Positions 18,423 to 63,847 of a stretch of 64,000 bases of DNA are shown here, one piece after another. The position numbers and the translations under genes were made by a program. A model generated the notes under the pieces. The model worked only from the letters and a program-made list of their open reading frames with translations. It was not told where the DNA came from and searched no databases. Each line of letters opens with the position of its first letter. Positions within the stretch are counted from its first letter, which is position 1. The stretch lies in IMG/VR virus record IMGVR_UViG_3300024229_000651, one strand, 5' to 3'. This DNA comes from a virus (Duplodnaviria; Caudoviricetes).

Positions 18423-18729
18423 ACTCTCCGCAGCATTCCGGTGTGCCGCAATTTGGATGTTCTTTTATCTCAGGAAGTAAATCCTCACCATAACGGCCAC
18501 GAGTTCTGTTGCCATCGCCGTTAAGTTCGGTTAAATCCTGCTGTACATAAGTATAGTCTCTATGGCTCGCATCAACTAATTCTCTGTACTTTGTTTTGTA
18601 CTCATTATTATCAACGGCGTCTCTGTACTTGGATTTGTACAGTGATAATTCCTTTTCCAAGAACTCTACTTTTTGTTGTAGTTCTTGTACAGTCGGCTTA
18701 TCGTTAGGGTCAAATATTGCTGGTTCCAT
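18400..18729 (-). CDS. Hypothetical protein with coiled coil and Cys-rich tail
   Basis: C-terminal HPNCGTPECCGECD. Confidence 0.6.
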   Translation of the reverse strand: MEPAIFDPNDKPTVQELQQKVEFLEKELSLYKSKYRDAVDNNEYKTKYRELVDASHRDYTYVQQDLTELNGDGNRTRGRYGEDLLPEIKEHPNCGTPECCGECDTASNG

Positions 18730-19322
18730 TACATCTCTCTTTTGTTTACCACAGTGTCAACTAGACCCATTGCCAATGCTTCTTGCGAAGTCAGGAAGTT
18801 GTCCCTGTCCATTGCAGATTCAAAGTCATTGTAGGACTTTCCAGCAGTGTTATGCTTGACATAAATTTCTGTAAGCTCACGCTTGATTCTAATAATCTCT
18901 TTAGCACGAATTTCAATGTCGCTTGCTTGCCCTTGGGCGCCGCCTAATGGTTGATGGATCATGTGCCTAGCGCCTGGTAACATGTAACGTTTACCTGTTG
19001 CGCCTGACTGAGCTAATAAACTCCCCATGCTTGCTGCCTGTCCCATTACGATAGTGCTTACTTCTGGATTAATGTATTGCATAGTATCATAGATTGCCAT
19101 ACCGGCAGTTACTACTCCGCCTGGACTATTAATATAAAAGCTAATATCCGCATTGGGGTCTTCTGCTTCTAAGAATAATAGCTGTGCACAAATGCTGTTT
19201 GACACCATGTCATTTACTTCTCCATTCAAAAATATAATTCTATCTTTGAGTAGTCTGCTGTAGATGTCATAACTACGCTCACCTGCGCTAGTCTTTTCTA
19301 TTACATACGGTACGAAATTCAT
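18729..19322 (-). CDS. clpP: ATP-dependent Clp protease proteolytic subunit
   Basis: [31 protein letters not shown] (Ser), MIHQP (His), DRD (Asp); GAGG SD; ATAAATA at 19343-19349. Confidence 0.96.
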
Positions 19323-19349: not shown

Positions 19350-19706
19350 TTAAACTGCAAGCAGTTCTTTAATTTTCTTCAGTGCCATATCAAATCCTCT
19401 CATACGTCTCATTGAGATTCTTGCAGGCGTTACATACTGGAAGTCAGAAAGTTCCATGTCCTTAATACCAGCGTAGTTTGTCGATTTTAAATCGTCAATC
19501 ATTGCTGTTAATATACCCTTAACAAACATACCCGAACTGTCATGATATATCTCTCCGTCAATGAGAGCTATCCAAACATCGGTGGCACATCCGACTACTT
19601 TATTTTCGTGTAGTCTAAGGTCTGCAGGAGGATCTTCATAATCGTAATCCATCATTACTTCATAAAAATCTTCGTGAGATAATTCTATTAAAAATTCTTT
19701 GTCCAT
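19350..19706 (-). CDS. Hypothetical protein, 118 aa
   Basis: Own sigma70 promoter upstream. Confidence 0.65.
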   Translation of the reverse strand: MDKEFLIELSHEDFYEVMMDYDYEDPPADLRLHENKVVGCATDVWIALIDGEIYHDSSGMFVKGILTAMIDDLKSTNYAGIKDMELSDFQYVTPARISMRRMRGFDMALKKIKELLAV

Positions 19707-21658: not shown

Positions 21659-23509
21659 TTAAACGGAAATGACGCTTTTGCCAAAGCCTTGGCGGCGCCT
21701 AAAGTAAAGACGGTTTAGGTATTCCTCACCTTTCACATTTTCACTAATGTCAAACGTGTAATTGTAAGTACCATCTTTAAAACTGTCTATGTGATTTATG
21801 AATTGAAAGAAGTTATGATTGTACTGCCTCTCATATGGATACGATGTGTCCATGCTTGTTACAAAATTATGCTGATAATCCATTAATTCTTCAAATAGGT
21901 CGCTGTCTAATTCGCACCATTCTGAACTGAATACTTTGTGCACAAAATCGAACACTATATCGCTGTTAGCGTGGAATTCTTTTTGTGCATCCCACATAAG
22001 TGTGTGCCCGCTAAAGCCATCGCTCTTGCCTGTTTCTAGGTAGTATGCTAATTTTTCTACTGTTGCTCTATTAACGTCACCAATGAATCCTTTATCATTA
22101 ATCACAGCATCGTATACTCTGTCATATGTTTCTAAGTAGGTAACGTTCTTGTATGATCTTAGAAACCTTGCAAGTGCCTGGCTCCATCCAAAGTTGTGGA
22201 AGTTATTGATCACCCAGGCATAGTTCCAACTATCGATAAATTTTTGTCTAGGCATGTACTTTGTGCCAGTAACAAGTTCTACCTTCTCTGGTATATTATC
22301 CTCTTCCTCAAAGCCACTGATATAGTTTTCCACAACAACTGTTGTTATGCCATGAGTTTCTCGTTGGGTAGGAGTATTCATTTCTGCATTCTCTAGCAAC
22401 TGTGCAAGCCAGCTTTCGATAGCATTGTGTTGTCCCGCTTCTATGACTTCGCATATACCTCTGCGCCAACTGTTAAACGTTTCCTTGGGTAATCCTAATA
22501 TTAACTCTGTGTAACTAGGGATGTTTTCCTTGTTGCACTTGTCGAAGATCATTTTTAGATCACTAATTTCCATGTTACGTCTACGGATCTCAGTGAGTAC
22601 GTCCATGTCCATGCTTTGTACACTTAATGTAAGTCCTCTATTGAACCCGCTACTAATAAACTTTTTAACAATTTCTAGGATTTCGTCACTACTGTTCTTA
22701 TACCATGTTGCATCAACAACTTTTGGGAATCCGTATTTGTCTTGCAGTTTCACAAGCTCTTCGGTGACTTCTAAATCTCTGTCAGTGAATACACCAAAGT
22801 TAGCATCTGCTATTGTAACGTAATCAACTTTATGTTCTGCCATCCATACAAGCTCTTGCAGAACCTTTGGCATAGGAAATTTTCGTATCTTTGCATACGT
22901 TAAACTGCCCCAGTCGCAGAATGTGCATGCAAACGGGCATCCTCTGTTTGTTTCTAATGTGCCATTCCAAACAACATCTGGATTATCTTTGTAAATTTTA
23001 TCAAATACACCCGTAGTGTAAGGACTAGGTATTTCTAAGTCGTCTAGTCTGCCTCCGAGATATATTTGTTTGAGTGGTTCTTTGTTATGGAAAGTTTCTA
23101 ATATTTCAACAAATGTCTCTTCGCCTTCATTAAGGGAAATAACATCCACAAAAGGATTATTATCAAAAAACTTTTCTTCTTCTGGTCGGTTGGTAACTTG
23201 TGGACCTCCGAATACAATCGTTATACTAGGATTATATTCTTTTAGCCTACGAGCTATTTCTTTGTTGTATTCCCAGTTCCACATATAGCAACTGAAGAAT
23301 GCTATATCAGAATCCTTAACTCGGCTAACTAACGTGTCTGGGTCTTCTCGCCTAAATATTAAATCGTGTAATTCAAAATTCTGATTTACTACATCAAACT
23401 GATTACCATAACTCCATAGGCATCCTACAGAATACGGTAACCAGTAGCCTGCTAACGATCCCAGGCCGATTTTAAAGTTAGGTTGTACTAACAATACTTT
23501 ATGTTTCAC
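21659..23509 (-). CDS. B12-binding radical SAM protein
   Basis: N-terminal cobalamin-binding-like domain (FSCYMWN, VFGGPQV), RGCPFACTFCDWG CxxxCxxC motif, ELILGLP. Confidence 0.88.
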   Translation of the reverse strand: MKHKVLLVQPNFKIGLGSLAGYWLPYSVGCLWSYGNQFDVVNQNFELHDLIFRREDPDTLVSRVKDSDIAFFSCYMWNWEYNKEIARRLKEYNPSITIVFGGPQVTNRPEEEKFFDNNPFVDVISLNEGEETFVEILETFHNKEPLKQIYLGGRLDDLEIPSPYTTGVFDKIYKDNPDVVWNGTLETNRGCPFACTFCDWGSLTYAKIRKFPMPKVLQELVWMAEHKVDYVTIADANFGVFTDRDLEVTEELVKLQDKYGFPKVVDATWYKNSSDEILEIVKKFISSGFNRGLTLSVQSMDMDVLTEIRRRNMEISDLKMIFDKCNKENIPSYTELILGLPKETFNSWRRGICEVIEAGQHNAIESWLAQLLENAEMNTPTQRETHGITTVVVENYISGFEEEDNIPEKVELVTGTKYMPRQKFIDSWNYAWVINNFHNFGWSQALARFLRSYKNVTYLETYDRVYDAVINDKGFIGDVNRATVEKLAYYLETGKSDGFSGHTLMWDAQKEFHANSDIVFDFVHKVFSSEWCELDSDLFEELMDYQHNFVTSMDTSYPYERQYNHNFFQFINHIDSFKDGTYNYTFDISENVKGEEYLNRLYFRRRQGFGKSVISV

Positions 23510-34509: not shown

Positions 34510-34943
34510 TGCTCTACTATAACTCCACTTTTATTTAAAAATTCAATACCCAGTGTACAACGATATAGATTTTTGTAATATACCGTTGTAATACCACTTT
34601 GATATATTAGTTTTGCACAATCTATACACGGTGAGTGTGTAATAAAGATAGTCGCTCCTTCTCCACTTTCAGAAGAGCGAGCTAGTTTAGCAATTGCATT
34701 AGTTTCTGCGTGGAGGACTTCAGGCCTTGATTTCATTTCGTAGCCGCCATCCTCATACTGGTATTCATCTTCGCATCTATTATCCCATCCACTGGGCATA
34801 CCATTATATCCAATGCTTATAATACGATTATCCTTTACAATGATTGCACCTACTTGGGCACGTTTGGCACTGCTGAGTTGTGCAAATCTTTCTGCACAAT
34901 CCATGAATGCATGTTTAAATTTATCTTTCATATTTGCACACAC
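34503..34943 (-). CDS. dCMP deaminase
   Basis: VGAIIV, SIGYNG, VLHAETNAI, THSPCIDC. Confidence 0.9.
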   Translation of the reverse strand: MCANMKDKFKHAFMDCAERFAQLSSAKRAQVGAIIVKDNRIISIGYNGMPSGWDNRCEDEYQYEDGGYEMKSRPEVLHAETNAIAKLARSSESGEGATIFITHSPCIDCAKLIYQSGITTVYYKNLYRCTLGIEFLNKSGVIVEQC

Positions 34944-36138
34944 TCACTGCAGCACTGCGGCCGCCGAATCCAAAACTTGTTTTCATAAAGCGATTGTATG
35001 TTTTACTCACTACGTCTTTATTTAAATTAAAATATTCATCGTCGGTGAACGGCACTTCTAATCCAGCATTTGCAGGCACAAAGTTATCGCACATTGCCTC
35101 AGCACCCAACACTATTTCCGCAATACCAGATGCTCCCATTAAGTGTCCTATTTGACCCTTGTTGCTGTATAGATAGCTGCCTTTAGGGAAATAGTCTCTA
35201 AGTACATTGTACTCAACTGGATCACCGAACGGTGTGCTAGTTGCATGTGCGTTTAAAACGTCATATGCAGACGTTTCAACTTCTGCCTGGGACAATGCCC
35301 TATCAATTGCAATTCTAGCGCCTGTCCCCTCTAAATCTGGCTGTGTAGGGTGTGCACCATCGTTAGCAATACCTAAACCATCAACAACCCAGCGAATACT
35401 AGCACCCCGAGCTTCTGCTTTTTCTAAGGGTTCTACGACAAGATAAACTGTGCCTTCTCCCATAACAAATCCGTCTCTAGATTTATCCCACGGCACACTT
35501 CTTCCAGTAGGAGATATTGCACCTAACTGTTGAAAATAGAGTGTGCTCATGCTACTTGTCATGAAGTCAGTTCCACCAACTATTGCACAATCATATCCTT
35601 CTGTTTGCATGTACTTCTTTGCTAGATCTAGTGCCTGTACAGCACTGATACATGTTCCACTTGTTGCCATACTCGGGCCATGCCACTTATAATGACTGCT
35701 TATATGGTTACTCACATATTCATGGCTGCTAGATAACAGTATTTGTGGGTGTATTTTTGATTTGCCTTGTACAAGTAAGTTGCTAAACTTAGCTAGGTTA
35801 GGTGCGCCGCCGCGAATGGTTCCTATGAACACAGGAGTATTGTCAGGGAAGTCAAGTCCGCTCATCTTAACTGCTTGGTCAACTGCAATCATACTTGTGA
35901 TCACAGTAGGGTCTGTCCAGCGGATATCTTTTTTGCGCATTAAGCCTAGTGCTTCAGTGTCTACATCGTCGTAGTTACAGTGAAATGCTCTTTCTACTGT
36001 TAATGTCGCATCAGAAAAATGTCCTGAACGTCTATATTCTGTATTGGGTACACACAAATCTTTTAAATTTGTGATGTTTTCTTGAATATTGTTTCCTAAG
36101 GGAGAGACAATGCCTATGCCAGTAATTGCTAGTTTCAT
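34921..36138 (-). CDS. fabF: Beta-ketoacyl-ACP synthase II-like (FabF)
   Basis: GIGIVSPLG, GPSMATSGTCIS (Cys), DGFVMGEG, NAHATST (His), SNKGQIGHLMGA (His), SFGFGG. Confidence 0.88.
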   Translation of the reverse strand: MKLAITGIGIVSPLGNNIQENITNLKDLCVPNTEYRRSGHFSDATLTVERAFHCNYDDVDTEALGLMRKKDIRWTDPTVITSMIAVDQAVKMSGLDFPDNTPVFIGTIRGGAPNLAKFSNLLVQGKSKIHPQILLSSSHEYVSNHISSHYKWHGPSMATSGTCISAVQALDLAKKYMQTEGYDCAIVGGTDFMTSSMSTLYFQQLGAISPTGRSVPWDKSRDGFVMGEGTVYLVVEPLEKAEARGASIRWVVDGLGIANDGAHPTQPDLEGTGARIAIDRALSQAEVETSAYDVLNAHATSTPFGDPVEYNVLRDYFPKGSYLYSNKGQIGHLMGASGIAEIVLGAEAMCDNFVPANAGLEVPFTDDEYFNLNKDVVSKTYNRFMKTSFGFGGRSAAVSVCKYER

Positions 36139-36211
36139 TAAGGATCGTGCCTATGTGTAAGTTGTGTAATTACTTAGTTTTTAAATTTTGGAATCGAGGT
36201 TTTTTTGATAT

Positions 36212-36243
36212 AAAAAAAGTAGCGACATATGTCGCTACTTTTT
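36212..36243. terminator. Bidirectional-type intrinsic terminator
   Basis: A7-GTAGCGAC-ATAT-GTCGCTAC-T5. Confidence 0.82.
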
Positions 36244-36270
36244 AAATAGGATTATCTACAAAGTGTTTGT

Positions 36271-37104
36271 TTAAAGTTTCTTAAGAACACATAATTGCCA
36301 ATAGCCTGAGCCGTCAGCTTCTGTGTTACAAAGATAGTCTACTTCGAAATTAGAGCCTGTAAGTTGTAATGCTTGTGCAACATCCCAATATGCTTCGTTA
36401 ACAACAGGTATGCCAAAGAATGGTACAATTAACAACCCATTTGTTGGTAATCGCTTAAATGCTCTAACAAGTGCAAGTCTAACACCATTTGCTTCTGCAA
36501 CTGGAAAGCCGTTGGACACTAGCCATGTACATACGATTTCTACCTCGGGAGAATAGCTTCCATCAGCTTCAATTGCTTCGCCTGAGGCGTTTACAATATG
36601 CGAGTTTGGAACAACTAGTGCATCTTCTGCTATCAAGTCATTTACACCAATTGGCTGTGGGGCTACTGTTAAATCAATTTCCCTAACAACTGAATTACCA
36701 TTGTGGATATCTAGTTGTCTAAATAGCGAAGCATTTCCTGCTTCATCAAACTCAACTTCGGTTGAACCGGAAGTATCGTTTTTGTAAACATTTGCTGCAC
36801 TGCCTACATTATCAAAAAAGTCACTAGTTGTTAAAAATGTATCTGTAAATTGGTCTGTGGTCGCAATTTTCCAATTGGCTGCGTTGGCACAGTTATCGTT
36901 AATGAACTTAGCAGTTTTTCCTGTAGCTGCGTTCTGCTCACTGATGTTAATAGTGATGGCAGTCTCAGTTACTTGATCAAGTATAGCTTTGATAGCTGCC
37001 CCTGTCGGCTCGTTTAATGTGCCGTCCATTAGATCATCCCAGACTAGAGAATCTGTATCGATGGCATTTATGTCTGCCTCTGACGGAATTGTAATACTTT
37101 GCAT
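36271..37104 (-). CDS. Acidic hypothetical protein, 277 aa, monocistronic
   Basis: ATAAATA (37132-37138), AGGAG SD and own terminator. Confidence 0.75.
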   Translation of the reverse strand: MQSITIPSEADINAIDTDSLVWDDLMDGTLNEPTGAAIKAILDQVTETAITINISEQNAATGKTAKFINDNCANAANWKIATTDQFTDTFLTTSDFFDNVGSAANVYKNDTSGSTEVEFDEAGNASLFRQLDIHNGNSVVREIDLTVAPQPIGVNDLIAEDALVVPNSHIVNASGEAIEADGSYSPEVEIVCTWLVSNGFPVAEANGVRLALVRAFKRLPTNGLLIVPFFGIPVVNEAYWDVAQALQLTGSNFEVDYLCNTEADGSGYWQLCVLKKL

Positions 37105-37152: not shown

Positions 37153-38061
37153 CTACTGCGTAACTTCGATTTCTTTTACTGTCGGATATAACGTGGTCAA
37201 TTCCAGTACATCATCCATTGTGTATGCTTTATTTATGTGTCCTAGACGCAAACGTCCTAATCTATATTCAGGTGCTTTGTAGTCTATATAATCGCCTAAA
37301 CCTTGCGACTCGCACCACGTATGGTACTCTTCGATTTTTTCTTTGTCGCTTTTTTCTGTGGGAAAATTTGCAGGATCGTGCTGAAAGTTCGTTGCAACAC
37401 CTGCTGTCATAACCAGTTGTTGCCTGTGTTCCCCACGCTTTATTAGGTCAGCATCGTCTGTCCAAAAACATGCACCGACATCTTTACCAATAGTATCGTA
37501 ATCCATTTCTAAACATCCCCACTGAGAATGGGGCATCCTCAGCATATGGTCGTCATCAGTTAAGTTTAGGTCTGGCAACATCCATTCTGCATAACCGTAT
37601 TGTTTTGCTACAGCAAAGACTTGATTAATTTCTACTGGTGCTGCTTCCATAAAGTGTACAAGTATATTAACACGCTCTAACAAATCTTGTGTTTCATTAA
37701 TACCCGTACCCCATTTTTCAGAATACAACTGAAAAATTTCATGTAGCCTGTTCAATTTATTAACTTGTAAATGAGGTGCAACTGTTAAATCTAACAATAA
37801 ATTATCAGGTATTTGGCAGTACTCATCAAGCTCGTTTATCTGAGATATAACATTATTCATTTCCGTAGCGTAACCCAGCGTTGTGTCTGCGCCTTGACTT
37901 CGTCTAATGTCTATCCGACTAGCTATATCTGATGTAGGCTTAGTTTGAGTTAAAAGTATACAAAGTTTTTCTATTACATCAGCTTGGTATAGCTCGTATG
38001 AGATATGCTCTGTTTTAGTTTTTAAATCGTTTTCAAATACCAAATTAATCGTTGACATCAA
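37153..38061 (-). CDS. Hypothetical protein, 302 aa
   Basis: Long clean ORF downstream of the peroxiredoxin. Confidence 0.7.
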   Translation of the reverse strand: MMSTINLVFENDLKTKTEHISYELYQADVIEKLCILLTQTKPTSDIASRIDIRRSQGADTTLGYATEMNNVISQINELDEYCQIPDNLLLDLTVAPHLQVNKLNRLHEIFQLYSEKWGTGINETQDLLERVNILVHFMEAAPVEINQVFAVAKQYGYAEWMLPDLNLTDDDHMLRMPHSQWGCLEMDYDTIGKDVGACFWTDDADLIKRGEHRQQLVMTAGVATNFQHDPANFPTEKSDKEKIEEYHTWCESQGLGDYIDYKAPEYRLGRLRLGHINKAYTMDDVLELTTLYPTVKEIEVTQ

Positions 38062-38686
38062 TATCCTCTTTGGTGTCCTCTACAGCAACATCGTCTTGTT
38101 CCATTTCCATCTCTGCCGCTTTTGCTTCATCTTCGATACGCTGTAATGCTTCTCTACGAGGTTCGCGGATATCTTCTAAATAATTCATCACTGTTTTAGC
38201 ATCACTAATAGTAAAAGGGTCTTCTGCAAGATTATCCATTTTGTTGGGCTCTGACCAAATGGCCTCTACACGACCTCTATCAACAACCATAGCATATCGA
38301 TGGCTCCTGATGCCAAACCCAAGGTTATCTTTTTTAACAGACATTCCCATAGCTCTTGTAAAGTCTCCCGATCCGTCTGGCAATGCCTTAACGTTAGTTA
38401 TTTCTTGTGCACTAAACCATGCGTTCATTACAAAACTATCATTAACACTTAAACAAAAAACCTCATCGATATCCTGCTCCATAATTCTACTGTAATTAAT
38501 TTCAAAGCCAGGCAAGTGTGTACTTGAGCACGTTGGCGTAAAAGCGCCTGGTAGTGCAAACACCACTACTCTTTTATCATGAAAAATTTCAAATGATGTT
38601 CTGTTTATCCATTCGAAGTCAGCAGTTTTATCACTGCGTTCTCTCATAACAAATGTCATGTCTGGTACATATAATTCTACTGCCAT
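38045..38686 (-). CDS. Peroxiredoxin (Prx5/AhpE-type) with acidic tail
   Basis: FALPGAFTPTCSSTHLPG, SVNDSFVMNAW, DGSGDFT, RSHRYAM; AGGAG SD. Confidence 0.9.
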   Translation of the reverse strand: MAVELYVPDMTFVMRERSDKTADFEWINRTSFEIFHDKRVVVFALPGAFTPTCSSTHLPGFEINYSRIMEQDIDEVFCLSVNDSFVMNAWFSAQEITNVKALPDGSGDFTRAMGMSVKKDNLGFGIRSHRYAMVVDRGRVEAIWSEPNKMDNLAEDPFTISDAKTVMNYLEDIREPRREALQRIEDEAKAAEMEMEQDDVAVEDTKEDIDVND

Positions 38687-38700
38687 AATTTTATCTCCTG

Positions 38701-40281
38701 TTACTGTGTGTTATAATTATCGTCGATTCTAGAAAAGCTCTTAAAAATCTCGTAGATATCACCTTTTATTGTTGCGTTAGGATCGTCTATCAAATCATCT
38801 ATTGTGTGTACTAACCAAGCATTAAGATTTATATAATAGTTATTACCCCAGTTAGTTAGCATTGATGCCATTCGTTCTTGATTTTCAAGAATTTTTGGTT
38901 TTGCGGCGAGTCTACACTGATGTAATTGCTCGGGTGTCTTTTGCTGAAGTTTGTGTACTTCTCTAGCAATTGCTTCTGCACGGTGTTGGCTGCTAACAAT
39001 ATCATCGTAGGACTCGTCGATGCCGAACTCCTCAGCTAGAGTATGGAACCCCAAACGTTTAAACCGTTGCACAAATCCTTGCCAAGAGAAAATAATAGTT
39101 GCTAAACCTAAGTAAAGAGGTTTTAAACTTTTTTCTGTAATGAATAAGTTAGCTTTTTCTGCAGGCTCAGAGTATAGCGCATTAGATTCGCATGTTAACC
39201 AAACATAAGTAGTGTCTTGGAACGGTATGTACTGCGACTCTACACCACCAATGAAATCATGATCGTCTTCTAGAGATTTGCCTGCTCTCATTTTTTCTCT
39301 AAAATCTGCAGCTAGTTCGTCGGAAATTTTGCCGCCCTCTCTGTCAACCCAAGCCTGACAGCCTTCACGAATCATCTCGTTTTCTAAATATTGCCCAGTC
39401 ATCCAAAAATTAGGATTGTGGTTGCTTGGCGCTGTCCCTACATTAAAGTATTGTAATGGTGGATAAAGACTAGTAACGGTTTGATATTGCCAGTAGTCGT
39501 TTTTATAAAGTTCCCAAGCAAGTAATGTTCTAGCTACATCTGGTCTTCTATTCAAAAAGGTTATTGTGCCTGGACGAATTGTATCCCAATCGTTAGTATC
39601 TATAAATTTAAGATATCCGGAACTGCCGGGATCACCCTCATGGAAGTTCATAAACGAATCTGTAGCCATATGGCCAATCATATCCCATGCTGGTATATAA
39701 TGTATAGGCTCTTCACCTAACTCTTCTGTAATACTATTACAGTAATTTTGACCATTTAAATTATGTCCTGTGATGAAGAACTTATTCCTAGGCACTTCGT
39801 ATATCTGTAATATATGACAAATTTGTATTATAATATCTCTAAGTTCTGGGGACTCGTCAAAAAAGTCGAGGACTAGAGCCGGCTGGCCCATTTCGTCCCA
39901 ATGGTCATAAAATTCCAGAAGAAAATCGACTTGTACTTCTCGGAGTTTCCAATTTGTTGTGTATGCCCCTCTGTCGTCAAAATCACCGAATCCACTTGTT
40001 GGTAGAAAAAATCCCACTTTAGCTACATGATTTCTGAAGCCAGTCTGTCCAATTCTTTTACTGAAAGGCATGTTAGCAAAAAACCCGATTAGCGGATGTC
40101 CTTCAATATCCCCCATGTGTGGACCTTTAGTGTCTAAATGGTATGTGTCATAGCCACCGTATATATTACGATGAGACATTACTTGGATAAAATCCAATAG
40201 GGTAGTTTGAACACTGTCATCGTTAATTGTAAAAGAATTTATAACTGGTAGTGCCTTAATGGATATAAGTCGTTTTGCCAT
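38701..40281 (-). CDS. Putative glycosyltransferase (GT10-like E...TEK motif)
   Basis: TFLNRRP, LTCES...FITEKSLKP...LGFHT...DESYD. Confidence 0.5.
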   Translation of the reverse strand: MAKRLISIKALPVINSFTINDDSVQTTLLDFIQVMSHRNIYGGYDTYHLDTKGPHMGDIEGHPLIGFFANMPFSKRIGQTGFRNHVAKVGFFLPTSGFGDFDDRGAYTTNWKLREVQVDFLLEFYDHWDEMGQPALVLDFFDESPELRDIIIQICHILQIYEVPRNKFFITGHNLNGQNYCNSITEELGEEPIHYIPAWDMIGHMATDSFMNFHEGDPGSSGYLKFIDTNDWDTIRPGTITFLNRRPDVARTLLAWELYKNDYWQYQTVTSLYPPLQYFNVGTAPSNHNPNFWMTGQYLENEMIREGCQAWVDREGGKISDELAADFREKMRAGKSLEDDHDFIGGVESQYIPFQDTTYVWLTCESNALYSEPAEKANLFITEKSLKPLYLGLATIIFSWQGFVQRFKRLGFHTLAEEFGIDESYDDIVSSQHRAEAIAREVHKLQQKTPEQLHQCRLAAKPKILENQERMASMLTNWGNNYYINLNAWLVHTIDDLIDDPNATIKGDIYEIFKSFSRIDDNYNTQ

Positions 40282-40283: not shown

Positions 40284-40616
40284 TTATAATATTCCCAATT
40301 GATATTTTGCTTCGTCTGTTATTTTATCTGGGTTCCAAGGAGGATCAAATGTTAAAATAACCTTGACGGTATTTATGTTTGACACAGCTCGTGTTGCAAA
40401 CTCTACTTCCATAGGAAGTATCTCAGCAGCCGGACAATTAGGCGATGTTAATGTCATCGTTACACGGGCGTTTGTATCAGCATCTACAGTTACATCATAG
40501 ATTAATCCTAGGTCATAAACATTTAAATTAATTTCAGGATCAAATACTTTTTTTAAATTTGCTACAATTAAATCTTCTAATTGACTTAAGAGTTGAGTTT
40601 CTTGAATATCTTCCAT
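40284..40616 (-). CDS. sufT: Fe-S assembly protein SufT (DUF59/MIP18)
   Basis: VFDPEINLNVYDLGLIY, MTLTSPNCP, FDPPW; start refined to MEDIQ. Confidence 0.88.
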   Translation of the reverse strand: MEDIQETQLLSQLEDLIVANLKKVFDPEINLNVYDLGLIYDVTVDADTNARVTMTLTSPNCPAAEILPMEVEFATRAVSNINTVKVILTFDPPWNPDKITDEAKYQLGIL

Positions 40617-41806
40617 AGACCTTCTACTAGTTGTACGCAATCATTCTCATCATTATAAGGTGCTAGGCTTACTCTGAGCACACCTGATTCCGTTGGGTTA
40701 TATCTGCAACTTGCAGGGTATGCACACAAGTGTCCGGATCGAACACACACATCTTCCATACCAAGTAATGTTGCCACATCACCTGCATCATGATCCTTCA
40801 AAACAAAACTATACACACTTCTGAACGTCTTAGGTCCTATCAGTTTCATATCATCGATAGCAAACAGTCCCTTTTCTTTCAGCATGTTGTAGAATTCTTT
40901 TTCACACTCTGCTATAGTTTTGTAAGTAGTGTCTTGTATCCATTGAGCAGCAGCACCTATACTGTGTACTCCTGCAATATTTGGTGTTCCAGCTTCAATA
41001 CGGCTAGGGTCACTGTTCAAGTCGTATTTGTCGAAATTTAGCCACTGTACTGTGCCGCCGCCAACACTCAATTCGACATCGTGGAATCCTCCACGTTTAA
41101 AAATTACACCTATTCCAGTACTAGCAAACATCTTGTGTCCGCTGAATACTAACCAATCCATATTTGACGACTGCACATCAATAGGCTTGTGGCCGATTGT
41201 TTGACATGCATCTAGCATTACTTCACAGCCTTGCTCTTTTGCAATTTGTACCATGTCTCGCCATTTTAACTCAAGGCCCGTTAGGTTACTTTGTGTTGTT
41301 ATTGATACAAACGTTCCTGGCTTAGCATATTCCAATGCTGTGTAAAAGTCTTCCAAACTGACGTCACCGTGATCGCTTGCTTGAACAACGATTAGATCTC
41401 CTTGATCTTGTCCTCTGCCGGCTTTAATCCATGGCATAATATTACTATGGTGTTCAAGCTCAGTAATTATTACTTTCCTGTCCCTATCGATACTTTCTGC
41501 TATTCGATTAAGACCATCTGTAGTACCAGATGTAAATGCAATCTCATAAGGTTTTGCATTAATTAGTTTTGCAACTTGTTCTCTAGCTTGCTCATATAAA
41601 TTGGATGCTGTCATCGCTGAAGCATATTCGCCTCTGTGAATATTGCTTCTATAATTATAATGATAATCACTGACTGCTTTGATCGCAGTGTCCACAGTTT
41701 GTGATGTGGCTGCATTATCCAAGTAATGGATTTTTGCATAATTCAAACTGGGAAACTGGGATCTAATATTGGCAATTTGTTTTGCCTTTTCGTAAACTCT
41801 TAACAT
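40586..41806 (-). CDS. sufS: Cysteine desulfurase, SufS (group II)
   Basis: YLDNAATSQ, EHHSN, DACQ, FSGHK (PLP Lys), EAGTP, VRSGHLCA (Cys). Confidence 0.92.
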   Translation of the reverse strand: MLRVYEKAKQIANIRSQFPSLNYAKIHYLDNAATSQTVDTAIKAVSDYHYNYRSNIHRGEYASAMTASNLYEQAREQVAKLINAKPYEIAFTSGTTDGLNRIAESIDRDRKVIITELEHHSNIMPWIKAGRGQDQGDLIVVQASDHGDVSLEDFYTALEYAKPGTFVSITTQSNLTGLELKWRDMVQIAKEQGCEVMLDACQTIGHKPIDVQSSNMDWLVFSGHKMFASTGIGVIFKRGGFHDVELSVGGGTVQWLNFDKYDLNSDPSRIEAGTPNIAGVHSIGAAAQWIQDTTYKTIAECEKEFYNMLKEKGLFAIDDMKLIGPKTFRSVYSFVLKDHDAGDVATLLGMEDVCVRSGHLCAYPASCRYNPTESGVLRVSLAPYNDENDCVQLVEGLWKIFKKLNS

Positions 41807-43056
41807 AAAAAACTTTCCACTAAAATTGTTTTGGCTTGATCAGGTGAAACTCCCTTTGTCTGCAAATAATATAAAGCAGAATCATCAACATTACTTATGG
41901 TACAACCATGTGCACATTCTATTTCTTTGGTCTTAATATCAAGCTGAGGCCGTGAACGCATTATGCTGCTACTATCTAACATAATATTTTTGTTAAACAT
42001 GTTGCCGCTAAAACCCGTGCCATGTTGATCAACTAGGAATGTCCCTACAAAACTTGTTGTGCTGTGTTCATGTCCTACTGTTCTGATATCAACATCACAC
42101 GAATTATTTGTAGACTTAGTTTCAAAAAATACTTCCGAATGATACTCGTTCCCTTTCCCAATATTATTTCTACCATTTATGTTAACTGTGACATCTTTTG
42201 TGGCATCCACATAAAAATTTTCCACACTGTAATGACTACCTGTATTTTTAACATCAATGTTTAATGTACTACCAGGGTAGCAAATGAACACACTGTCAAA
42301 TATACCCCAAGTGCCGCCTTTTGATAGTGTTTCTCTTTGTAGATTAAGAGTAGCATTTTCTCGTAAAATATAGACCACATAGTTAAGTTGGCCGGCTTGC
42401 AAATCTACTAACTCATTTAAGTTGACTGCGCTGTTTGCCTTGATGTCAATAACATTTGTATTGCTTTCCAATATAGGATCGTCAACAGAATTACAGTACT
42501 CTATTACTACAGGCGAATCGTTTGATTTATTAATTGTAATAACATTAGGAAATACCGTTGATGCTATAGTTAGATCACCAAAACCTTTTGTATTTTCTAG
42601 ATACGTTGTGTATTTGTCGTACTTGTAGTTTCTATTGATGTCGTCGAATAATCTGACTTTGGAAGTTTTCTCATGTAGGTCGTTAGTAGTGAAGGCATTA
42701 CTGTCACAAAAAATAATTGTTTCTTTAGGGCCTGTAGCCAAACGATCAAATCTATTTAACTGCATATTATAATAATCAACAGTATTACCTACGTCTGATG
42801 TATCGAGTATGTCAGTCTTATATATTTTGTTGAGATTAAAATCGCCGAACACTTTGTGCTTTTTGTTGGGGAGACCAGCTCCGGCAAGTCCAGTCAACGC
42901 TGTTGTATAATAATCTGCTTTGGAGTCCCCATAGGAATTAAAATAAAGTTCCGCCCACTTATCATCCGTTAAGTAATTGTATAAGTCCTCAAGCTGATAA
43001 AACTTTTTTGTTGGGGCTTCTTGAAATGTTGTGTGGGCGCATAATCTCTTAAACAC
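41800..43056 (-). CDS. sufD: Fe-S assembly protein SufD
   Basis: C-terminal RPQLDIKTKEIECAHGCTIS...LYYLQTKG; position between sufC and sufS. Confidence 0.82.
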   Translation of the reverse strand: MFKRLCAHTTFQEAPTKKFYQLEDLYNYLTDDKWAELYFNSYGDSKADYYTTALTGLAGAGLPNKKHKVFGDFNLNKIYKTDILDTSDVGNTVDYYNMQLNRFDRLATGPKETIIFCDSNAFTTNDLHEKTSKVRLFDDINRNYKYDKYTTYLENTKGFGDLTIASTVFPNVITINKSNDSPVVIEYCNSVDDPILESNTNVIDIKANSAVNLNELVDLQAGQLNYVVYILRENATLNLQRETLSKGGTWGIFDSVFICYPGSTLNIDVKNTGSHYSVENFYVDATKDVTVNINGRNNIGKGNEYHSEVFFETKSTNNSCDVDIRTVGHEHSTTSFVGTFLVDQHGTGFSGNMFNKNIMLDSSSIMRSRPQLDIKTKEIECAHGCTISNVDDSALYYLQTKGVSPDQAKTILVESFLC

Positions 43057-43744
43057 TTTTAAATCCTGATTGGAAAATTTTATCTGCTATTTCAATTCCG
43101 CCCGTTATCGTACCAGTGGGTTGTAGGACAACAACTGTGTCTGGGTTTATACCAGCAATTAGTTTTTCATAGTGTGTTACAACTATGAGAGTTCTATCAG
43201 ATGATTTCCATTTATTCAGCGATTCAATCAAACTGTCGATGCCGTCTACGTCAAGTCCACTATCCGGTTCGTCAAGCATTGCAACACTAACATCAAGCAT
43301 GTTCATTTGAATAAGTTCGTTCTTCTTTTTCTCACCGCCGCTTGCATCTGTGTTAATGCTCTTTCGGTCCCACAAATCTGGTAGTGCGAGTTCTGCGCTC
43401 AACTCTTTAAATTCTTTCAGCTTTGTAACAATATCAGCGCCGCTTAAATCAAGTGCTTGTTTTAGCATCTGGAAGTTACTCAAGCCAGGTATAGGAGTAG
43501 GCGTTTGAAATCCTAAAAATAATCCAGCCTGTGCACGTTCATGGACTTCTTTATCGGATATAATTTCGTTATTGAGTATAACTTCACCTGATACTTCTAT
43601 ATCAGGTCGGCCCATAATTGCGTGGAGTAGTGTGCTCTTTCCAACACCATTACTTCCCATAATTACATAAGTTTTGCCCACTTCAAAGGAAAGCGATATA
43701 TCCTTTAAAACATTGTTAACATTTAACTTTTTAATTTCTAACAT
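43049..43744 (-). CDS. sufC: Fe-S assembly ATPase SufC
   Basis: GSNGVGKSTL, FLGFQTP, SGGEKKKNE, LDEPDSGLD, VTHY. Confidence 0.93.
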   Translation of the reverse strand: MLEIKKLNVNNVLKDISLSFEVGKTYVIMGSNGVGKSTLLHAIMGRPDIEVSGEVILNNEIISDKEVHERAQAGLFLGFQTPTPIPGLSNFQMLKQALDLSGADIVTKLKEFKELSAELALPDLWDRKSINTDASGGEKKKNELIQMNMLDVSVAMLDEPDSGLDVDGIDSLIESLNKWKSSDRTLIVVTHYEKLIAGINPDTVVVLQPTGTITGGIEIADKIFQSGFKSV

Positions 43745-43750
43745 GTGTGT

Positions 43751-43779
43751 ATTATACCTGATGTGTTGTGTTTTGTCAA
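43751..43779 (-). promoter_or_regulatory. Perfect sigma70 promoter, leaderless spacing to sufC
   Basis: TTGACA-17-TATAAT-acacac-ATG. Confidence 0.8.
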
Positions 43780-43786
43780 TAATTAT

Positions 43787-44044
43787 TTAGACTTCTTTGC
43801 GTACAGATTTGCTATACTTGTACATACTTGTGCCGTGTTCTAGTTTAAATATATAACTTTTTTGCCAGCAGTCTAATTGTATAGGTGTCATTCGACCTTT
43901 ACATTCTTTAATGTTTTCCTGCTTCCATTCGGCTGTTGTATCAGGATCCTTCCACTTTAGTTTTTCTAATACTGTTCTTCCACAACCCTGACATTGATTG
44001 GTATATTTGTCGTGCATGCACAAACTAATACAAGGACTGATCAC
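43787..44044 (-). CDS. DUF1289-like predicted Fe-S protein
   Basis: SPCISLC...CQGCGRT...W. Confidence 0.8.
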
Positions 44045-45492
44045 CCCACAGCACCTTCCATTGTAACGCTCAATAATTGGTTTGCTTCAGCAGCAAACTC
44101 TAGTGGCAAGTGTTGGAATACATCCTTACAAAATCCGCTGACAACAAGGTTAAGTGCATCGTCTTCAGCAAACCCTCTACTCTGTAAGTAATACATTTGT
44201 TCTTCGCTGATCTTGCCGGCGCTTGCTTCATGCTCGACTTTTGCAGTACTGTTTGTAGAGCTGACATATGGTATTGTGAGTGCTCTACTGTTCTGCATCA
44301 TCAAGCTGTCACATTTAGTGAAGTTACTAGCATTGTCAGCCTTACCGTTAATTTTTACCATGCCTCTGTAAGTACTAGTACTATCACCAAAACTTATACC
44401 TTTAGCGATAATTGTGCTTTTAGTATCTTTACCAACATGAATCATTTTACTGCCAGTGTCTGCTTGTTGTTTGCCTTTAGTAACAGCAACACTAAAAAAC
44501 TCGCCCACACTGTTATCGCCTTTAAGAATACAACTTGGATACTTCCATGTTACTGCTGAGCCAGTCTCAACTTGAGTCCATGATACTTTACTGCTCTCAC
44601 CTTCGCATAAGGCTCGTTTGGTAACAAAGTTATATACACCACCTACACCGTTCTCATCGCCTGGATACCAATTTTGTACTGTACTGTATTTGATCTCTGC
44701 TCTGTCTAGTGTTACAAGCTCCACAACTGCCGCATGCAGGGTGTTCTCATCGTATGCAGGCGCTGTACAACCTTCTAAGTAACTTACATAACTATCATCG
44801 TCTGCGATAATAAGTGTGCGTTCAAACTGCCCTGTATTACGAGCATTTATTCTAAAGTATGTGTTAAGTTCCATTGGGCATCTAACACCCTTTGGGATAT
44901 AGCAAAATGTGCCGTCGGAAAACACTGCACTATTCAAGCATGAAAAATAGTTATCGCTGTATGAGACAACACTGCCTAAATATTTTTGTACAAGTTCGGG
45001 ATGTTCCTTTACTGCTTCACTAATACTACAAAAAATAATTCCGTCTTTTTCTAGCTCTGCTTTAAAAGTAGTGGCAACACTGACAGAATCAAAAACAGCA
45101 TCAATTGCCACAGTTGGGATAATCCTATCGTCATTCTCACTCTCAATTCCAAGCAGTGCATCACGTTCATGCAGTGGGACACCCAACTTGTCGAATGTGT
45201 CCAATATTTCCTGAGGTATTTCATCTTTGTTTCTTATTTTAGGCGCCGAATAGAAACTCATTGCCTGATAGTCTGGTCTGTCATAATTTAACTCTGACCA
45301 GTCCGGTTCTGATAACTGTTGCCATCTCTTGAAGGCTTTGAGTCTAAAGTTTAAGAGCCATTCTGGTTCATCCTTCATTTGGCTCAGTCTACGAACGATG
45401 TTTTCATCTAAACCCGGTTCAAAGTCTTCGCTTTCAATTTCAGTACGAAAGCCTTCCTTGTATTGTGTAGTTTCTATTGTGTCAGCTTTCAT
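44041..45492 (-). CDS. sufB: Fe-S assembly scaffold SufB
   Basis: [41 protein letters not shown]. Confidence 0.96.
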
Positions 45493-45788
45493 TCGATTCG
45501 TTCAAAGTTAACTTTAAGTGGGTGTCCGGCCATTCTGGCAAGTGTAGTGGCTTCGGTCGTTTTCTGTTCAGCTATCTCATGATTGTAGGTTCCAGCGACA
45601 GCCGAGTCCTCACTATGTATCCGCATAGTTACATCTTGTGCCGTTTCCAATGAGGTGTTGAACACATCGATAAGCATCTGTATTACAAACGCCATTGGTG
45701 TAAAATCATCATTGTACACAATCACATTGAACCTGGGCGGGTAAGATAACCTTGTTTCTGTGTGTGTTTTTACTTGTGCGTTAGCCAT
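45489..45788 (-). CDS. clpS: Clp protease adaptor ClpS
   Basis: [19 protein letters not shown]...IH; N-degron-binding NDD/M/H residues present. Confidence 0.92.
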
Positions 45789-45807
45789 TTAATACTGTCC
45801 AGTTAGT

Positions 45808-45827
45808 AGGGGAGGTATTCCTCCCCT
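45808..45827. other. GC-rich hairpin between hsp20 and clpS
   Basis: AGGGGAGG-N4-CCTCCCCT; no T tract on the coding (minus) strand. Confidence 0.6.
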
Positions 45828-45836
45828 GGGTTTTAT

Positions 45837-46274
45837 TTAAGATATTTTAATTTTTTGGGGTTTCATTGCATCAGGAATGTGCCTGACTAATGTTACTCTC
45901 AAAATGCCATCTTCTAATTTAGCACTATCAACTTCAACATACTCTGCAAGTTTGAATGTTCTCACAAAGTTGCGTTCTGCAATACCTTTGTGTAGGAACT
46001 CTCTGCCGTCTTGGTCTAACACCTGTGAGTTACCTGTTATTTTTAATGTACCATCTTCCAACTCGATGTCGATATCACTACGCTTAAATCCTGCTAGGGC
46101 AAGAGTAATCTCATAAACATCGTTATCGTCTTTGGAAATGTTGTACGGAGGGTATCCAGTCACATTTGCGAATGCAGGTTCGTTGAAGAATTCATTCATA
46201 ACTCTATCGAAGCCAACGCTGGCTCTGAATAGAGGGTTTAGGGTTTCGGTTGTCAATCTGAATTGCTTTGTCAT
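45837..46274 (-). CDS. Small heat shock protein Hsp20 (IbpA-like)
   Basis: GYPPYNI, LALAGF, LHKGIAERNF, LEDGIL, KPQKIKI. Confidence 0.93.
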   Translation of the reverse strand: MTKQFRLTTETLNPLFRASVGFDRVMNEFFNEPAFANVTGYPPYNISKDDNDVYEITLALAGFKRSDIDIELEDGTLKITGNSQVLDQDGREFLHKGIAERNFVRTFKLAEYVEVDSAKLEDGILRVTLVRHIPDAMKPQKIKIS

Positions 46275-46352: not shown

Positions 46353-46368
46353 TATTTATCCATTATAA

Positions 46369-46785
46369 TTAACTAGAAAATAAATTGTTGAAACTTTCTT
46401 CTAATGATCTAACCGGGAGCCTATCATAAAACTTTAATTTAAACAACATAACATCTTCCTCAGTCCAAGCTCGCCCATCAGGCTTTGCTACAACATTAAG
46501 GTACATAGTTGAATAGTCTGGTGAGTTCGAATCGTCCTCCCAACTGTTCCCCCACGACATCATAATTTTGTAATCCATCTTTGCGTCATTGAAGAATTTG
46601 ACAAAAGGCTGTATCACATTGTGTACAGCCATTTCATTTATCCATTCGTAATCAGCATCATCAGAAACAGGTGCACTAACAAGCAGTATAGAATCTACTG
46701 TTTCATTGTGCACATTTTTCTGTAAGAAGTTATCAATTTCCTTTGGCACCGAGATAATCCTTTTCTTTACTAGTCTTGATTGCAT
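46369..46785 (-). CDS. Hypothetical protein (start uncertain)
   Basis: ORF fills the gap; the listed start overlaps the HNH gene. Confidence 0.55.
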   Translation of the reverse strand: MQSRLVKKRIISVPKEIDNFLQKNVHNETVDSILLVSAPVSDDADYEWINEMAVHNVIQPFVKFFNDAKMDYKIMMSWGNSWEDDSNSPDYSTMYLNVVAKPDGRAWTEEDVMLFKLKFYDRLPVRSLEESFNNLFSS

Positions 46786-47185
46786 GACATCTACAGCACA
46801 AAGTTTGAATGTTATCCTTGGTGTTTGATCCGCCTCGGCTTTTCAATTCAATATGATCTCCGTGCATCACACTACGCATACATCGAAGTTTGTGAAATTC
46901 ATCTTCAATATCGTCAAACTGAGGATCTTTGCGTGGATCGTAGCCGCATGCCTCGCATACCCACCCTCGATAGAATGTATGAGGGCGTTCAGGTTTACCC
47001 ATCCCGCCGTATTCAGTGCACTCAAGTTGATGATGTCTGCAAAGTATTTTGCTACCCGGTCCTTCGTAGTTGCTGAGAGGACTATCGCAGTCCTCTAGCA
47101 TACAGGTTGAATTAACACGAGTTTCTTTGAGATACTGGGTCGTGCTTTTAACTTTATCGTTATCGGGATCTCTAAGCATTTCCAA
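46733..47185 (-). CDS. HNH endonuclease
   Basis: DHIELKSRGGSNTKDNIQTLCCRCH, with extra CxxC motifs. Confidence 0.85.
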   Translation of the reverse strand: MEMLRDPDNDKVKSTTQYLKETRVNSTCMLEDCDSPLSNYEGPGSKILCRHHQLECTEYGGMGKPERPHTFYRGWVCEACGYDPRKDPQFDDIEDEFHKLRCMRSVMHGDHIELKSRGGSNTKDNIQTLCCRCHAIKTSKEKDYLGAKGN

Positions 47186-54464: not shown

Positions 54465-54904
54465 TATTGCTGTCCTTTAGAAACCCTATTACGTAAACTT
54501 GTACTACTAAAACTGTGATCTCTTTTATTAAAATATAAATCAATGTTTCTCATAGTACAAATATCTCTTCCAGTAAAGTCACTATCCTTATACTCTATAC
54601 CTAGTATACGCACATTTATAGGTAAAGTCAATAGCATATCTTCTAAATCCTGTTCAGTGTTATATACAATGATCTCGTCTACAAATTTAACAGCACTCAA
54701 TTGTATTTGTCTTTCTATAATACTTTGTATAGGCGGATTCTTACTGTCAGGTCGATCAATAGTGGGATCATTTTGTAAGCCTACAATAAGAAAATCACAG
54801 TGACGTTTTGCTTCTTCTAACATAGTGATATGCCCAGCATGCAGGAGATCAAACGTACTACAAGTAAAACCTATTGTGCCACAATCCTTGTAGTCTAGTT
54901 TCAT
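54464..54904 (-). CDS. Glycerol-3-phosphate-type cytidylyltransferase
   Basis: TFDLLHAGH, ER, FSSTSLR. Confidence 0.85.
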   Translation of the reverse strand: MKLDYKDCGTIGFTCSTFDLLHAGHITMLEEAKRHCDFLIVGLQNDPTIDRPDSKNPPIQSIIERQIQLSAVKFVDEIIVYNTEQDLEDMLLTLPINVRILGIEYKDSDFTGRDICTMRNIDLYFNKRDHSFSSTSLRNRVSKGQQ

Positions 54905-55338
54905 TACTGAAAATCTCTTAGCATTTTTTCAATTTCCAATGCATGTTGTTCTTCTGTGCCGATTTGGCCTCTCGCATATTCTTCCAACATTATACTAGAG
55001 TCTGCTACTTCTGTCAACAACTTTTTGTACAATCCTACCGCATGCTCTTCATGTGCAAGGCTTTCCCGTAGAATAGCTTGGACACTATGGTCATGGCTTT
55101 CTTCTATTTGCGCAATACGCTGACTAGGATGTCCGTTAAATCCACTAATAAACTCTCCTGCTTGTAAAGCATGAGCCAAACTTTCATTTGCTTGCTCCTG
55201 CAAAAAGGTTACAATTGGCTGTCTATACGGGCCTGTGATCATTAGCGAGCTGTGTGCATATCGTACGACACCTGCCATTTCATATTCCACAATCTCATTG
55301 AGGATCTCGTTAACTGCCAGTCTGTTAAGTGTTTTCAT
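54904..55338 (-). CDS. Ferritin-like (bacterioferritin-type) protein
   Basis: EYE...ESLAH...EEH...EEQH ferroxidase pattern in a four-helix bundle. Confidence 0.8.
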   Translation of the reverse strand: MKTLNRLAVNEILNEIVEYEMAGVVRYAHSSLMITGPYRQPIVTFLQEQANESLAHALQAGEFISGFNGHPSQRIAQIEESHDHSVQAILRESLAHEEHAVGLYKKLLTEVADSSIMLEEYARGQIGTEEQHALEIEKMLRDFQ

Positions 55339-63499: not shown

Positions 63500-63847
63500 T
63501 TATTCTTTGAAGGGCGCCTTACTCACTTTATCCCATGCTTCTTGATTGGTGTATTTGATGTCTTCATACCCTGGCAAAGGTTCTTTGACCTTTCGAATAA
63601 CTGGCCAATTTTCTTCTTGGCTCATTTTTTTATTGAAATCTAGCCAATGGTGATCTTCTGGGGCAAGTTTTCTATCACTAACAATTGCATTTACTGGGCA
63701 TTCGGGTTCACAGATTGCACAATCGATGCAAATATCGGGATCAATAACAAGTGTATTCTCACCTTCAAAAAAGCAATCCACAGGGCAAACTTTAACGCAG
63801 GTGGTATGTTTACAGTCTACGCATTCACCCTTAACAACATATGTCAT
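63500..63847 (-). CDS. fdxA: 7Fe ferredoxin (FdxA type)
   Basis: MTYVV...CVDCKHTTCVKVCPVDCF...IDPDICIDCAICEPECPVNAI. Confidence 0.93.
   Translation of the reverse strand: MTYVVKGECVDCKHTTCVKVCPVDCFFEGENTLVIDPDICIDCAICEPECPVNAIVSDRKLAPEDHHWLDFNKKMSQEENWPVIRKVKEPLPGYEDIKYTNQEAWDKVSKAPFKE

Follow-up and report, generated by a model that had tools for sequence, protein, structure and literature searches.

A SUF-type gene set for iron-sulfur cluster assembly in the genome of a marine T4-type phage

Positions 40284-45492 of a 64,000-nucleotide stretch of viral DNA from IMG/VR record IMGVR_UViG_3300024229_000651 (the whole stretch is called the window in what follows) contain, on the minus strand, six tightly packed open reading frames (ORFs), which are sufB, a DUF1289 gene, sufC, sufD, sufS and sufT. 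In the SUF pathway, which builds clusters of iron and sulfur (Fe-S clusters), the SufBC2D complex is the scaffold and SufS the sulfur donor, while SufE or SufU and SufA normally assist. The original prediction for this locus, made from the sequence alone, held that the six genes are contiguous and that their key motifs are intact, and this agrees with what was found for all six ORFs. It also held that SufE is absent from the window, which is not so, since a sufE gene lies on the same strand, 21 kb from the operon and directly upstream of clpP. The suf genes overlap or abut their neighbours and are translationally coupled to phage-specific neighbour genes, and the guanine-plus-cytosine (GC) content is flat, at 37-41%, throughout the region. 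The SUF genes, the DUF1289 gene and the promoter between sufB and sufC are the following.

44041..45492, minus strand: sufB, the Fe-S scaffold subunit (NF008773, 803.6 bits, cut-off 717).
43787..44044, minus strand: four-cysteine DUF1289 protein with the pattern CX3C...CX2C (PF06945, 41.2 bits, cut-off 27); its GTG start overlaps the sufB stop.
43751..43779, minus strand: sigma-70-type promoter TTGACA-N17-TATAAT, matching the consensus at 12 of 12 positions.
43049..43744, minus strand: sufC, the ABC-type ATPase of the scaffold (TIGR01978, 206.3 bits, just below the cut-off of 212.8).
41800..43056, minus strand: sufD, the scaffold partner of SufB (PF01458, 105.7 bits).
40586..41806, minus strand: sufS, a type II (SufS/CsdA-class) cysteine desulfurase (PF00266, 304 bits; TIGR01979, 317.6 bits, cut-off 475.1).
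40284..40616, minus strand: sufT, a DUF59/PaaD-like Fe-S maturation factor (PF01883, 56.1 bits, cut-off 23.5; TIGR02945, 117.7 bits, cut-off 143.4).
19350..19706, minus strand: sufE, the sulfur acceptor of SufS (PF02657, 34.6 bits, cut-off 27; the sole match in the genome).

Motifs were checked in alignments to solved E. coli structures. SufB, which matches E. coli SufB (5awf_A) with 626 bits, retains EGC with Cys254, TKCDS with Cys405 and EHE (Glu432-His433-Glu434), as well as the tunnel residues Arg226, Asn228, Gln285, Trp287 and Lys303, and it is without the N-terminal CxxCxxxC motif. The top matches of SufC in the Protein Data Bank (PDB) are SufC proteins, that of E. coli being the best, and all five ATPase motifs are intact (Walker A, Q-loop, signature, Walker B, H-loop). 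SufD shares about 15% identity with E. coli SufD and scores 109.8 bits in the NCBIfam equivalog model, below the cut-off of 222. Its ECAHG motif (CAHG) aligns with Cys358/His360 of the E. coli protein (2zu0/5awf), and a profile of viral SufD sequences gives 112 bits against SufD versus 40 bits against SufB. The AlphaFold model of SufD, with a predicted local distance difference test (pLDDT) score of 82 and a predicted template modelling (pTM) score of 0.86, matches the fold of E. coli SufD (2zu0/5awf_B) along its entire length, with a template modelling (TM) score of 0.69-0.74 over about 410-420 columns.

SufS matches SufS structures with about 200 bits and retains HHSN, GHK with the pyridoxal-phosphate lysine and RSGHLCA with the active-site cysteine; the two catalytic residues, Lys225 and Cys361, are invariant across 15 viral homologues. 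Since it scores below the cut-off of TIGR01979, SufS is best classed as a diverged member of its family. The sufT ORF as listed begins with a TTG at 40640, inside sufS, and the true start is likely to be the ATG at 40616, which is preceded by AGAAGG and overlaps the end of sufS; sufT comes after sufS in viral and in cellular loci. Identity to cellular homologues is 60-64% for SufB, 35-43% for SufC, 22-43% for SufD and 24-40% for SufS.

The SufE motif VVGCATDVW fits the pattern V-x-G-C-x-S/T-x-V-W, and Cys40 is invariant in 8 viral homologues. SufE was found in four of five related viral records, the fifth being a fragment rated 25% complete, and a scan of the viral contigs gave 0 loci with a single-sequence query and 7 loci with an alignment-based one. 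The predicted SufS-SufE complex lends weak support to docking, with an ipSAE (interaction prediction score from aligned errors) of 0.33 versus 0.00 for the best control. The mark used is reached by 58 of 80 solved complexes and by 2 of 110 mismatched pairs, scores of 0.60 or less count as weak, and the value may stem from similar solved complexes already known to the predictor (CsdA-CsdE/SufS-SufE-like). At least 90% of the contacts were shared between runs, with a partner pLDDT of at least 82. From the presence of sufE follows that the relay and the scaffold are both encoded, so that the set is more complete than the original prediction had it.

Three carrier families were also searched for in the whole 340-kb record. 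No match was found there to the A-type carrier/SufA (PF01521), IscU/SufU (PF01592) or Nfu (PF01106) families, the record being 91% complete, so that the missing part could still hold a carrier. The earlier statement that SufA and SufU are absent from the window thus holds for the entire record. The record encodes the complete SufS-SufE relay, the SufBC2D scaffold and SufT and, as judged from these searches, is without a carrier.

The source of the window is a single IMG/VR record of 339,794 bp with a CheckV completeness of 91%, of which 95% is coding and which has a GC content of 39%. On the same contig lie genes for the large terminase (phrog_36964, 435 bits), the portal (phrog_213, 387 bits), a T4 gp23-type major capsid protein (PF07068, 271 bits), the tail sheath (phrog_10581, 781 bits) and the tail tube, and further genes for UvsX, a gp32-like single-stranded-DNA-binding protein, a DnaB-like helicase and ribonucleotide reductase. 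It is therefore taken to belong to a genuine, uncultured marine phage of the T4 type and not to be a host insert.

A scan of IMG/VR with SufB retrieved 40 contigs from 39 metagenomes. In about 20 of the 40 the block hsp20-clpS-sufB-sufC-sufD-sufS-sufT-(526-residue protein)-peroxiredoxin is kept. In a maximum likelihood tree of the viral SufB sequences and the 80 best cellular matches, 21 viral sequences, the SufB of the window among them, form a clade with 100% support and a long stem, with no cellular member inside, and the closest cellular SufB proteins are those with 60-64% identity. For SufC, a single branch with 98% support parts all 33 viral from all 78 cellular sequences, a split to be read with the usual caution about long branches. 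The trees that had been proposed as a check place the window's sequence apart from the cellular ones for both proteins. A few other viral contigs, among them those of loci L047, L054 and L055 (our labels), have a SufB that nests among cellular sequences; these may be separate captures or mis-classified contigs.

Measured in sequence pairs whose synonymous divergence is unsaturated, the ratio of nonsynonymous to synonymous substitution rates (dN/dS) lies between 0.02 and 0.19 for each of the suf genes, with values of 0.04-0.11 for sufB and 0.02-0.13 for sufT; the comparison of the window with L022 is saturated for several genes, and closer pairs were used instead. These ratios show purifying selection on the suf genes; together with the synteny, the virus-only clade and the phage genes on the contig, they mark a virus-specific, probably old set that is inherited in the viral lineage. 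In distant viral SUF clades (L050, L051, L053, L057 and L058) the gene at the sufD position has about 190-290 codons, compared with a cellular median of about 435, which suggests that some phage lineages have a shortened SufD.

A megablast search of GenBank phages with the region gave no match. When the same phages were searched by tblastn with SufB, the only matches were the Microcystis phage MaAM05, a faecal contig without annotation and records of Staphylococcus, Listeria and Enterococcus with about 41% identity, none of them in the clade; the last group of matches look like host SufB at record ends.

The junction between sufB and sufC differs among relatives. DUF1289 was not found in 5 related viral records, in the viral contigs or in GenBank phages. 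Related loci mostly have a gap of 42 nt only at this junction, and others have a gene for a 110-residue cupin-like protein or for a protein of 52, 88 or 375 residues. From the absence of DUF1289 at this place in every related locus and the presence of unrelated small genes in some, it follows that the junction is a variable slot, and DUF1289 is an accessory insert of one genome, outside the conserved operon.

The promoter lies inside this 42-nt spacer. Its -10 box ends 6 nt before the ATG of sufC, without a Shine-Dalgarno sequence. About 15 related loci share both hexamers and the same distance of 6 nt, and differ in the sequence of the spacer. Sites of the form TTGACA-N16-18-TAnAAT occur 15 times in the genome, all of them on the coding strand, versus 1.9 expected in shuffled sequences; apart from the site before sufC, they are upstream of the ORF start that follows by a distance of 30 nt or more (mostly 30-125 nt). 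Those in the window are these.

14613, 43779, 55017, 62276 and 63496, minus strand: TTGACA-N16-18-TAnAAT sites.

From their form, the 15 sites look like early promoters, recognized by the host sigma-70. With the -10 box as close to sufC as this, transcription would start near the AUG itself, and this placement suggests that sufC, sufD, sufS and sufT are expressed from a leaderless early transcript. T4-type phages are known to carry promoter-early stem-loop (PeSL) cassettes, which are strong sigma-70-like promoters at gene-shuffling junctions (Arbiol et al. 2010, PMC2839356). The sufB|sufC site is like them in having a strong sigma-70-like promoter at a junction where small unrelated genes are swapped. 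It is unlike them in that no stem-loop was found in the 42-nt spacer, and hence there is no stem-loop terminator, in that the slot is inside a metabolic operon and not in a hyperplastic region, and in that a transcript from this promoter would start at the start codon of sufC. It resembles a PeSL cassette and is not a member of that class.

The operon is flanked by genes that belong to the conserved block, and sufE by a protease gene.

45837..46274, minus strand: hsp20, an IbpA/B-like small heat-shock protein, which opens the conserved block (PF00011, 65.6 bits; phrog_432, 131 bits).
45489..45788, minus strand: clpS, the ClpAP adaptor (PF02617, 88.4 bits), with a stop that shares 4 nt with the start of sufB.
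38701..40281, minus strand: 526-residue protein of a virus-only family, function not assigned, between sufT and the peroxiredoxin gene (without Pfam, NCBIfam or PHROG match).
38045..38686, minus strand: peroxiredoxin of the Redoxin/AhpC-TSA family (PF08534, 86.2 bits; phrog_2281, 213.6 bits).
18729..19322, minus strand: clpP protease subunit, immediately downstream of sufE (phrog_94, 171.9 bits; ClpP fold, with the PHROGs label 'head maturation protease').

In about 20 viral loci hsp20 is located upstream of clpS-sufB; clpS is kept adjoining sufB in related loci, and the peroxiredoxin gene is retained downstream of sufT in most of them. The gene for the 526-residue protein follows sufT only in the closest relatives, with 33-39% identity. 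Its nearest clusters in the ESM Atlas are 98-100% viral and have no common family; an Atlas hint at a glycosyltransferase-like protein (0.77-0.79) was too weak and was not used. The clpP product reads, from its own sequence, as a standalone ClpP, and a ClpP-sized ORF adjoins sufE in related loci also. A late-type motif, GATAAATA, occurs at 46360, by hsp20. Within the 48-nt gap between hsp20 and clpS, at 45807-45828, there is a 9-bp GC-rich hairpin, which has its T-run on the plus strand only; on the coding strand it looks like an element for processing or stability rather than like a terminator. An HNH endonuclease gene, conserved with 64-70% identity in the closest relatives, lies at 46733-47185, two genes upstream of hsp20. 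No tRNA genes were found in the window.

At least 12 seawater metatranscriptome runs contain half or more of the sampled words of the region, and in four runs contigs of 13-21 kb match it without differences, which fits active infection. In two samples contigs end at 36147-36307, in the gap between the beta-ketoacyl synthase gene and p277, with a two-fold step in depth, a weak hint of a transcript boundary. In one sample the contigs break inside sufB (44762-44791), where the depth is 200 versus 77, and this break may reflect strain variation.

The window contains further genes that had been named as possible Fe-S clients or partners, and profile matches bear out the identity of all of them: DUF1289 and the peroxiredoxin, listed above, and the three that follow.

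21659..23509, minus strand: B12-binding radical S-adenosylmethionine (SAM) enzyme (PF04055, 47.8 bits; PF02310, 44.5 bits; CX3CX2C at residue 190).
54904..55338, minus strand: ferritin-like protein of the Dps/ferritin family (PF00210, 55.1 bits).
63500..63847, minus strand: 7Fe-type (FdxA-like) ferredoxin with Fer4 domains and DUF3470 (CX2CX2CX3C motif; phrog_8732, 113.5 bits).

The B12-binding radical SAM enzyme is a likely Fe-S client. Its gene is 2 kb from sufE here, and a similar gene is 3-4 kb from sufE in relatives. The ferredoxin is an Fe-S client and a possible electron donor, and the ferritin-like protein may be an iron buffer, its link to SUF being only the genome that they share. 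The whole genome has 11 matches to the radical SAM family PF04055, 12 ORFs in which the CX3CX2C motif is intact, and two glutaredoxins. A complete record of 328 kb, which encodes SufB, SufC, a short SufD and SufE, has 22 radical SAM matches; its SufB is outside the 21-member clade.

A set of protein-quality-control genes was also noted in the window, namely, in the order of the coordinates, a ClpA-like unfoldase, a J-domain protein, ClpP, ClpS, Hsp20 and a ClpX-like protein.

5879-8071, 8076-8858, 18729-19322, 45489-45788, 45837-46274 and 56517-57791, minus strand: protein-quality-control genes.

The ClpA-like protein is a double-AAA unfoldase of 730 residues with Clp_N, AAA, AAA_2 and ClpB_D2-small domains and without a middle domain; the HPD motif of the J-domain protein and the CxxC N-terminus of the ClpX-like protein were both judged by eye. 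ClpS adjoins sufB, and ClpP adjoins sufE. Further metabolic genes in the window, at 34921-36138, 8903-9139, 33574-34509 and 30935-32056, are, in this order, those for a beta-ketoacyl synthase (FabF/FabB-like), a small acyl carrier protein-like ORF (DSL motif, judged by eye), a TauD-family dioxygenase and a protein of the inosine monophosphate dehydrogenase/guanosine monophosphate reductase family.

From the observed gene identities, catalytic residues, SufD fold, viral context, conservation and selection we infer, with a probability of about 0.7, that the phage encodes a working SUF system of the E. coli type, which is made in infection and mainly serves the phage's own Fe-S enzymes; its activity, timing and recipients are the parts that go beyond these observations. 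The pathway would run as follows. SufS would draw sulfur from cysteine as a persulfide and pass it to SufE, which would hand it to Cys254 of SufB, and the cluster would be assembled by the SufB-SufC2-SufD complex with the SufC ATPase as its motor, SufT assisting its hand-over to target proteins. The set would be produced during infection, in part from the host-sigma-70-type (early) promoter directly before sufC, and its main task would be to supply clusters to the at least 12 radical SAM enzymes of the phage and to the ferredoxin. Alongside it, a stress module of Hsp20, ClpS and peroxiredoxin would be suited to oxidising, iron-poor surface seawater. For carriers, iron and reductant the pathway would depend on the host, or on the phage glutaredoxins and ferredoxin.

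A bolder version of this reading, to which we give distinctly less than even odds, is that marine T4-type jumbo phages have probably long kept their own branch of SUF, which works without an A-type carrier and is needed for loading their large radical SAM repertoires, that sufC, sufD, sufS and sufT are expressed early and leaderless by the RNA polymerase of the host, and that the sufB|sufC junction is a docking slot for the swapping of genes for accessory metal- or cysteine-rich proteins, e.g., DUF1289 or a cupin.

Several findings weigh against the proposal that the phage runs a working SUF system for its own enzymes. SufC, SufD, SufS and SufT all score under their NCBIfam equivalog cut-offs, and fast-evolving phage SUF proteins could have shifted in function. 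SufE is 21 kb off and very divergent. The pathway would not be self-sufficient, as genes for an A-type carrier, Nfu and IscU/SufU are lacking from the record. The contigs from RNA libraries may stem from carried-over DNA, and they show neither strand nor transcript ends nor expression level. The conserved neighbours of the suf genes are only peroxiredoxin, hsp20 and clpS, the ferritin-like and ferredoxin genes are 10-18 kb off, and DUF1289 is an insert of one genome, so that an autonomous programme is a supposition. Finally, for a T4-like marine viral genome with 12 radical SAM genes no more than a carrier and PaaD were reported (Nishimura et al. 2017, PMC5332604), from which it follows that many clients alone do not require a phage SUF system. 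The original prediction had the phage run an Fe-S, iron and redox programme that is largely autonomous, as opposed to carrying Fe-S genes in isolation. Its latter half stands, in that a whole SUF set is present; the autonomy was a step beyond the sequence, and is asserted of a set that lacks a carrier.

The main alternative, clearly less probable and still to be taken seriously, is that SUF mainly sustains the Fe-S proteome of the host, i.e., respiration, central metabolism and nucleotide synthesis, under the oxidative stress, iron shortage or shutdown of host gene expression that infection causes, the classic role of an auxiliary metabolic gene that sustains the host. In E. coli, SUF is the Fe-S system for oxidative stress and iron limitation; the genes conserved next to the operon are, moreover, the stress genes hsp20, clpS and peroxiredoxin and not radical SAM genes. 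The radical SAM island is at least about 80 kb from the operon, and phages rich in radical SAM enzymes with no SUF reported do exist (PMC5332604). Against this stand the two complete or near-complete SUF-bearing genomes that were examined, which have 12 and 22 radical SAM genes, and the closeness of the B12 radical SAM gene to sufE both here and in relatives. A role in sustaining the host is compatible with one in serving phage clients, and the two are not exclusive.

Very improbable is a repurposed SUF, in which the sulfur from SufS-SufE would be used, e.g., for thiolation of nucleic acids or cofactors, and SufC/SufD would be an ATP-driven module with another task. Such a change would agree with the divergence of SufC, SufD and SufS from their cellular homologues, which is much greater than that of SufB, and with the SufD of some 190-290 residues in more distant viral clades. 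Here, however, SufD has full length and the SufD fold, Cys254, Cys405 and Glu434 of SufB, His360 of SufD and the ATPase motifs of SufC are all kept, and SufB and SufT, for which we know of no role outside Fe-S assembly, are the most strongly constrained.

That the suf segment is a host insert, an assembly chimera or part of a mis-classified cellular contig, so that SUF would not be truly viral, is hardly credible, because, although the cellular placement of SufB from L047, L054 and L055 and the MaAM05 record discussed below mean that artefacts or recent captures do exist, the flat GC content and the translational coupling to phage genes, the recurrence and synteny of the block in about 20 viral contigs of different metagenomes, a virus-only clade distant from every cellular SufB, purifying selection, the metatranscriptome contigs of four samples that cross both flanks and the structural genes on the same contig all speak for viral residence.

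Fe-S cluster assembly is regarded as core cellular housekeeping. A virus-specific SufBC2D-SufSE-SufT set, kept by selection, suggests that some phages carry along the entire machinery for making this cofactor. Probably they do so since the radical SAM chemistry of the phage (tailoring of glycans or peptides, 7-deazaguanine DNA) demands more than a marine host short of iron can provide. This gene set is also a naturally minimised and highly diverged SUF system, in which SufB is conserved, SufC, SufD and SufS have drifted far and SufA is lacking, so that comparison with the cellular system could reveal the essential contacts and residues, and the long stem of the viral clade raises the question of the age of virus-encoded cofactor biogenesis.

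A literature search found no paper that describes a complete phage SUF system, which is not proof that there is none. Marine viral genomes are known to carry single Fe-S genes, for A-type carrier, IscU and PaaD, and the authors take these to serve the Fe-S proteins of virus and host alike (Nishimura et al. 2017, PMC5332604, and the virome studies cited there). Those viruses with SufA, IscU, PaaD/DUF59 or glutaredoxin genes are alike in being marine, partly T4-like phages that combine Fe-S biogenesis with many radical SAM genes. They differ in having one or two carriers or scaffolds, whereas here the whole scaffold and the relay are present and the A-type carrier and IscU are missing. The known class of viral Fe-S auxiliary genes, so far single helpers, is thereby widened to include an entire machine of several subunits.

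The sole GenBank phage with an annotated full suf cluster is the Microcystis phage MaAM05 (MW495066.1, 258798-273876; locus L142), which has sufBCDS-iscU. The cluster is at the end of the record, amid bacterial housekeeping genes, after pxpA, panB, panC and a 'gluconeogenesis factor', and has a GC content of 54.6%; the PhiMa05 paper does not mention it (PMC8093824). Unlike the SUF set of the window, that of MaAM05 has IscU/SufU instead of SufE, and its SufB, which is 58% identical to the SufB of the window versus 70-73% to cellular SufB, is outside the viral clade. It looks like bacterial DNA present as contamination, or like a very recent capture.

The closest known system is SUF of the E. 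coli type (sufABCDSE; PDB 5AWF/2ZU0). The phage set has the same components, the gene order sufB-C-D-S and the catalytic residues, including the cysteine of SufE, and as in cellular relatives sufT closes the operon. It is unlike the E. coli type in forming a virus-only clade, in lacking sufA, which is present in E. coli and not in every SUF system, and in having sufE 21 kb away, by clpP. Its SufB is without the N-terminal CxxCxxxC, and SufC, SufD and SufS are strongly diverged. The operon, moreover, is placed between hsp20-clpS and peroxiredoxin, with an internal promoter abutting the start of sufC and an extra DUF1289 gene. Three points are particular to this locus: the sufE gene in the window, the one-off DUF1289 in a variable slot and the conserved promoter that abuts the start of sufC.

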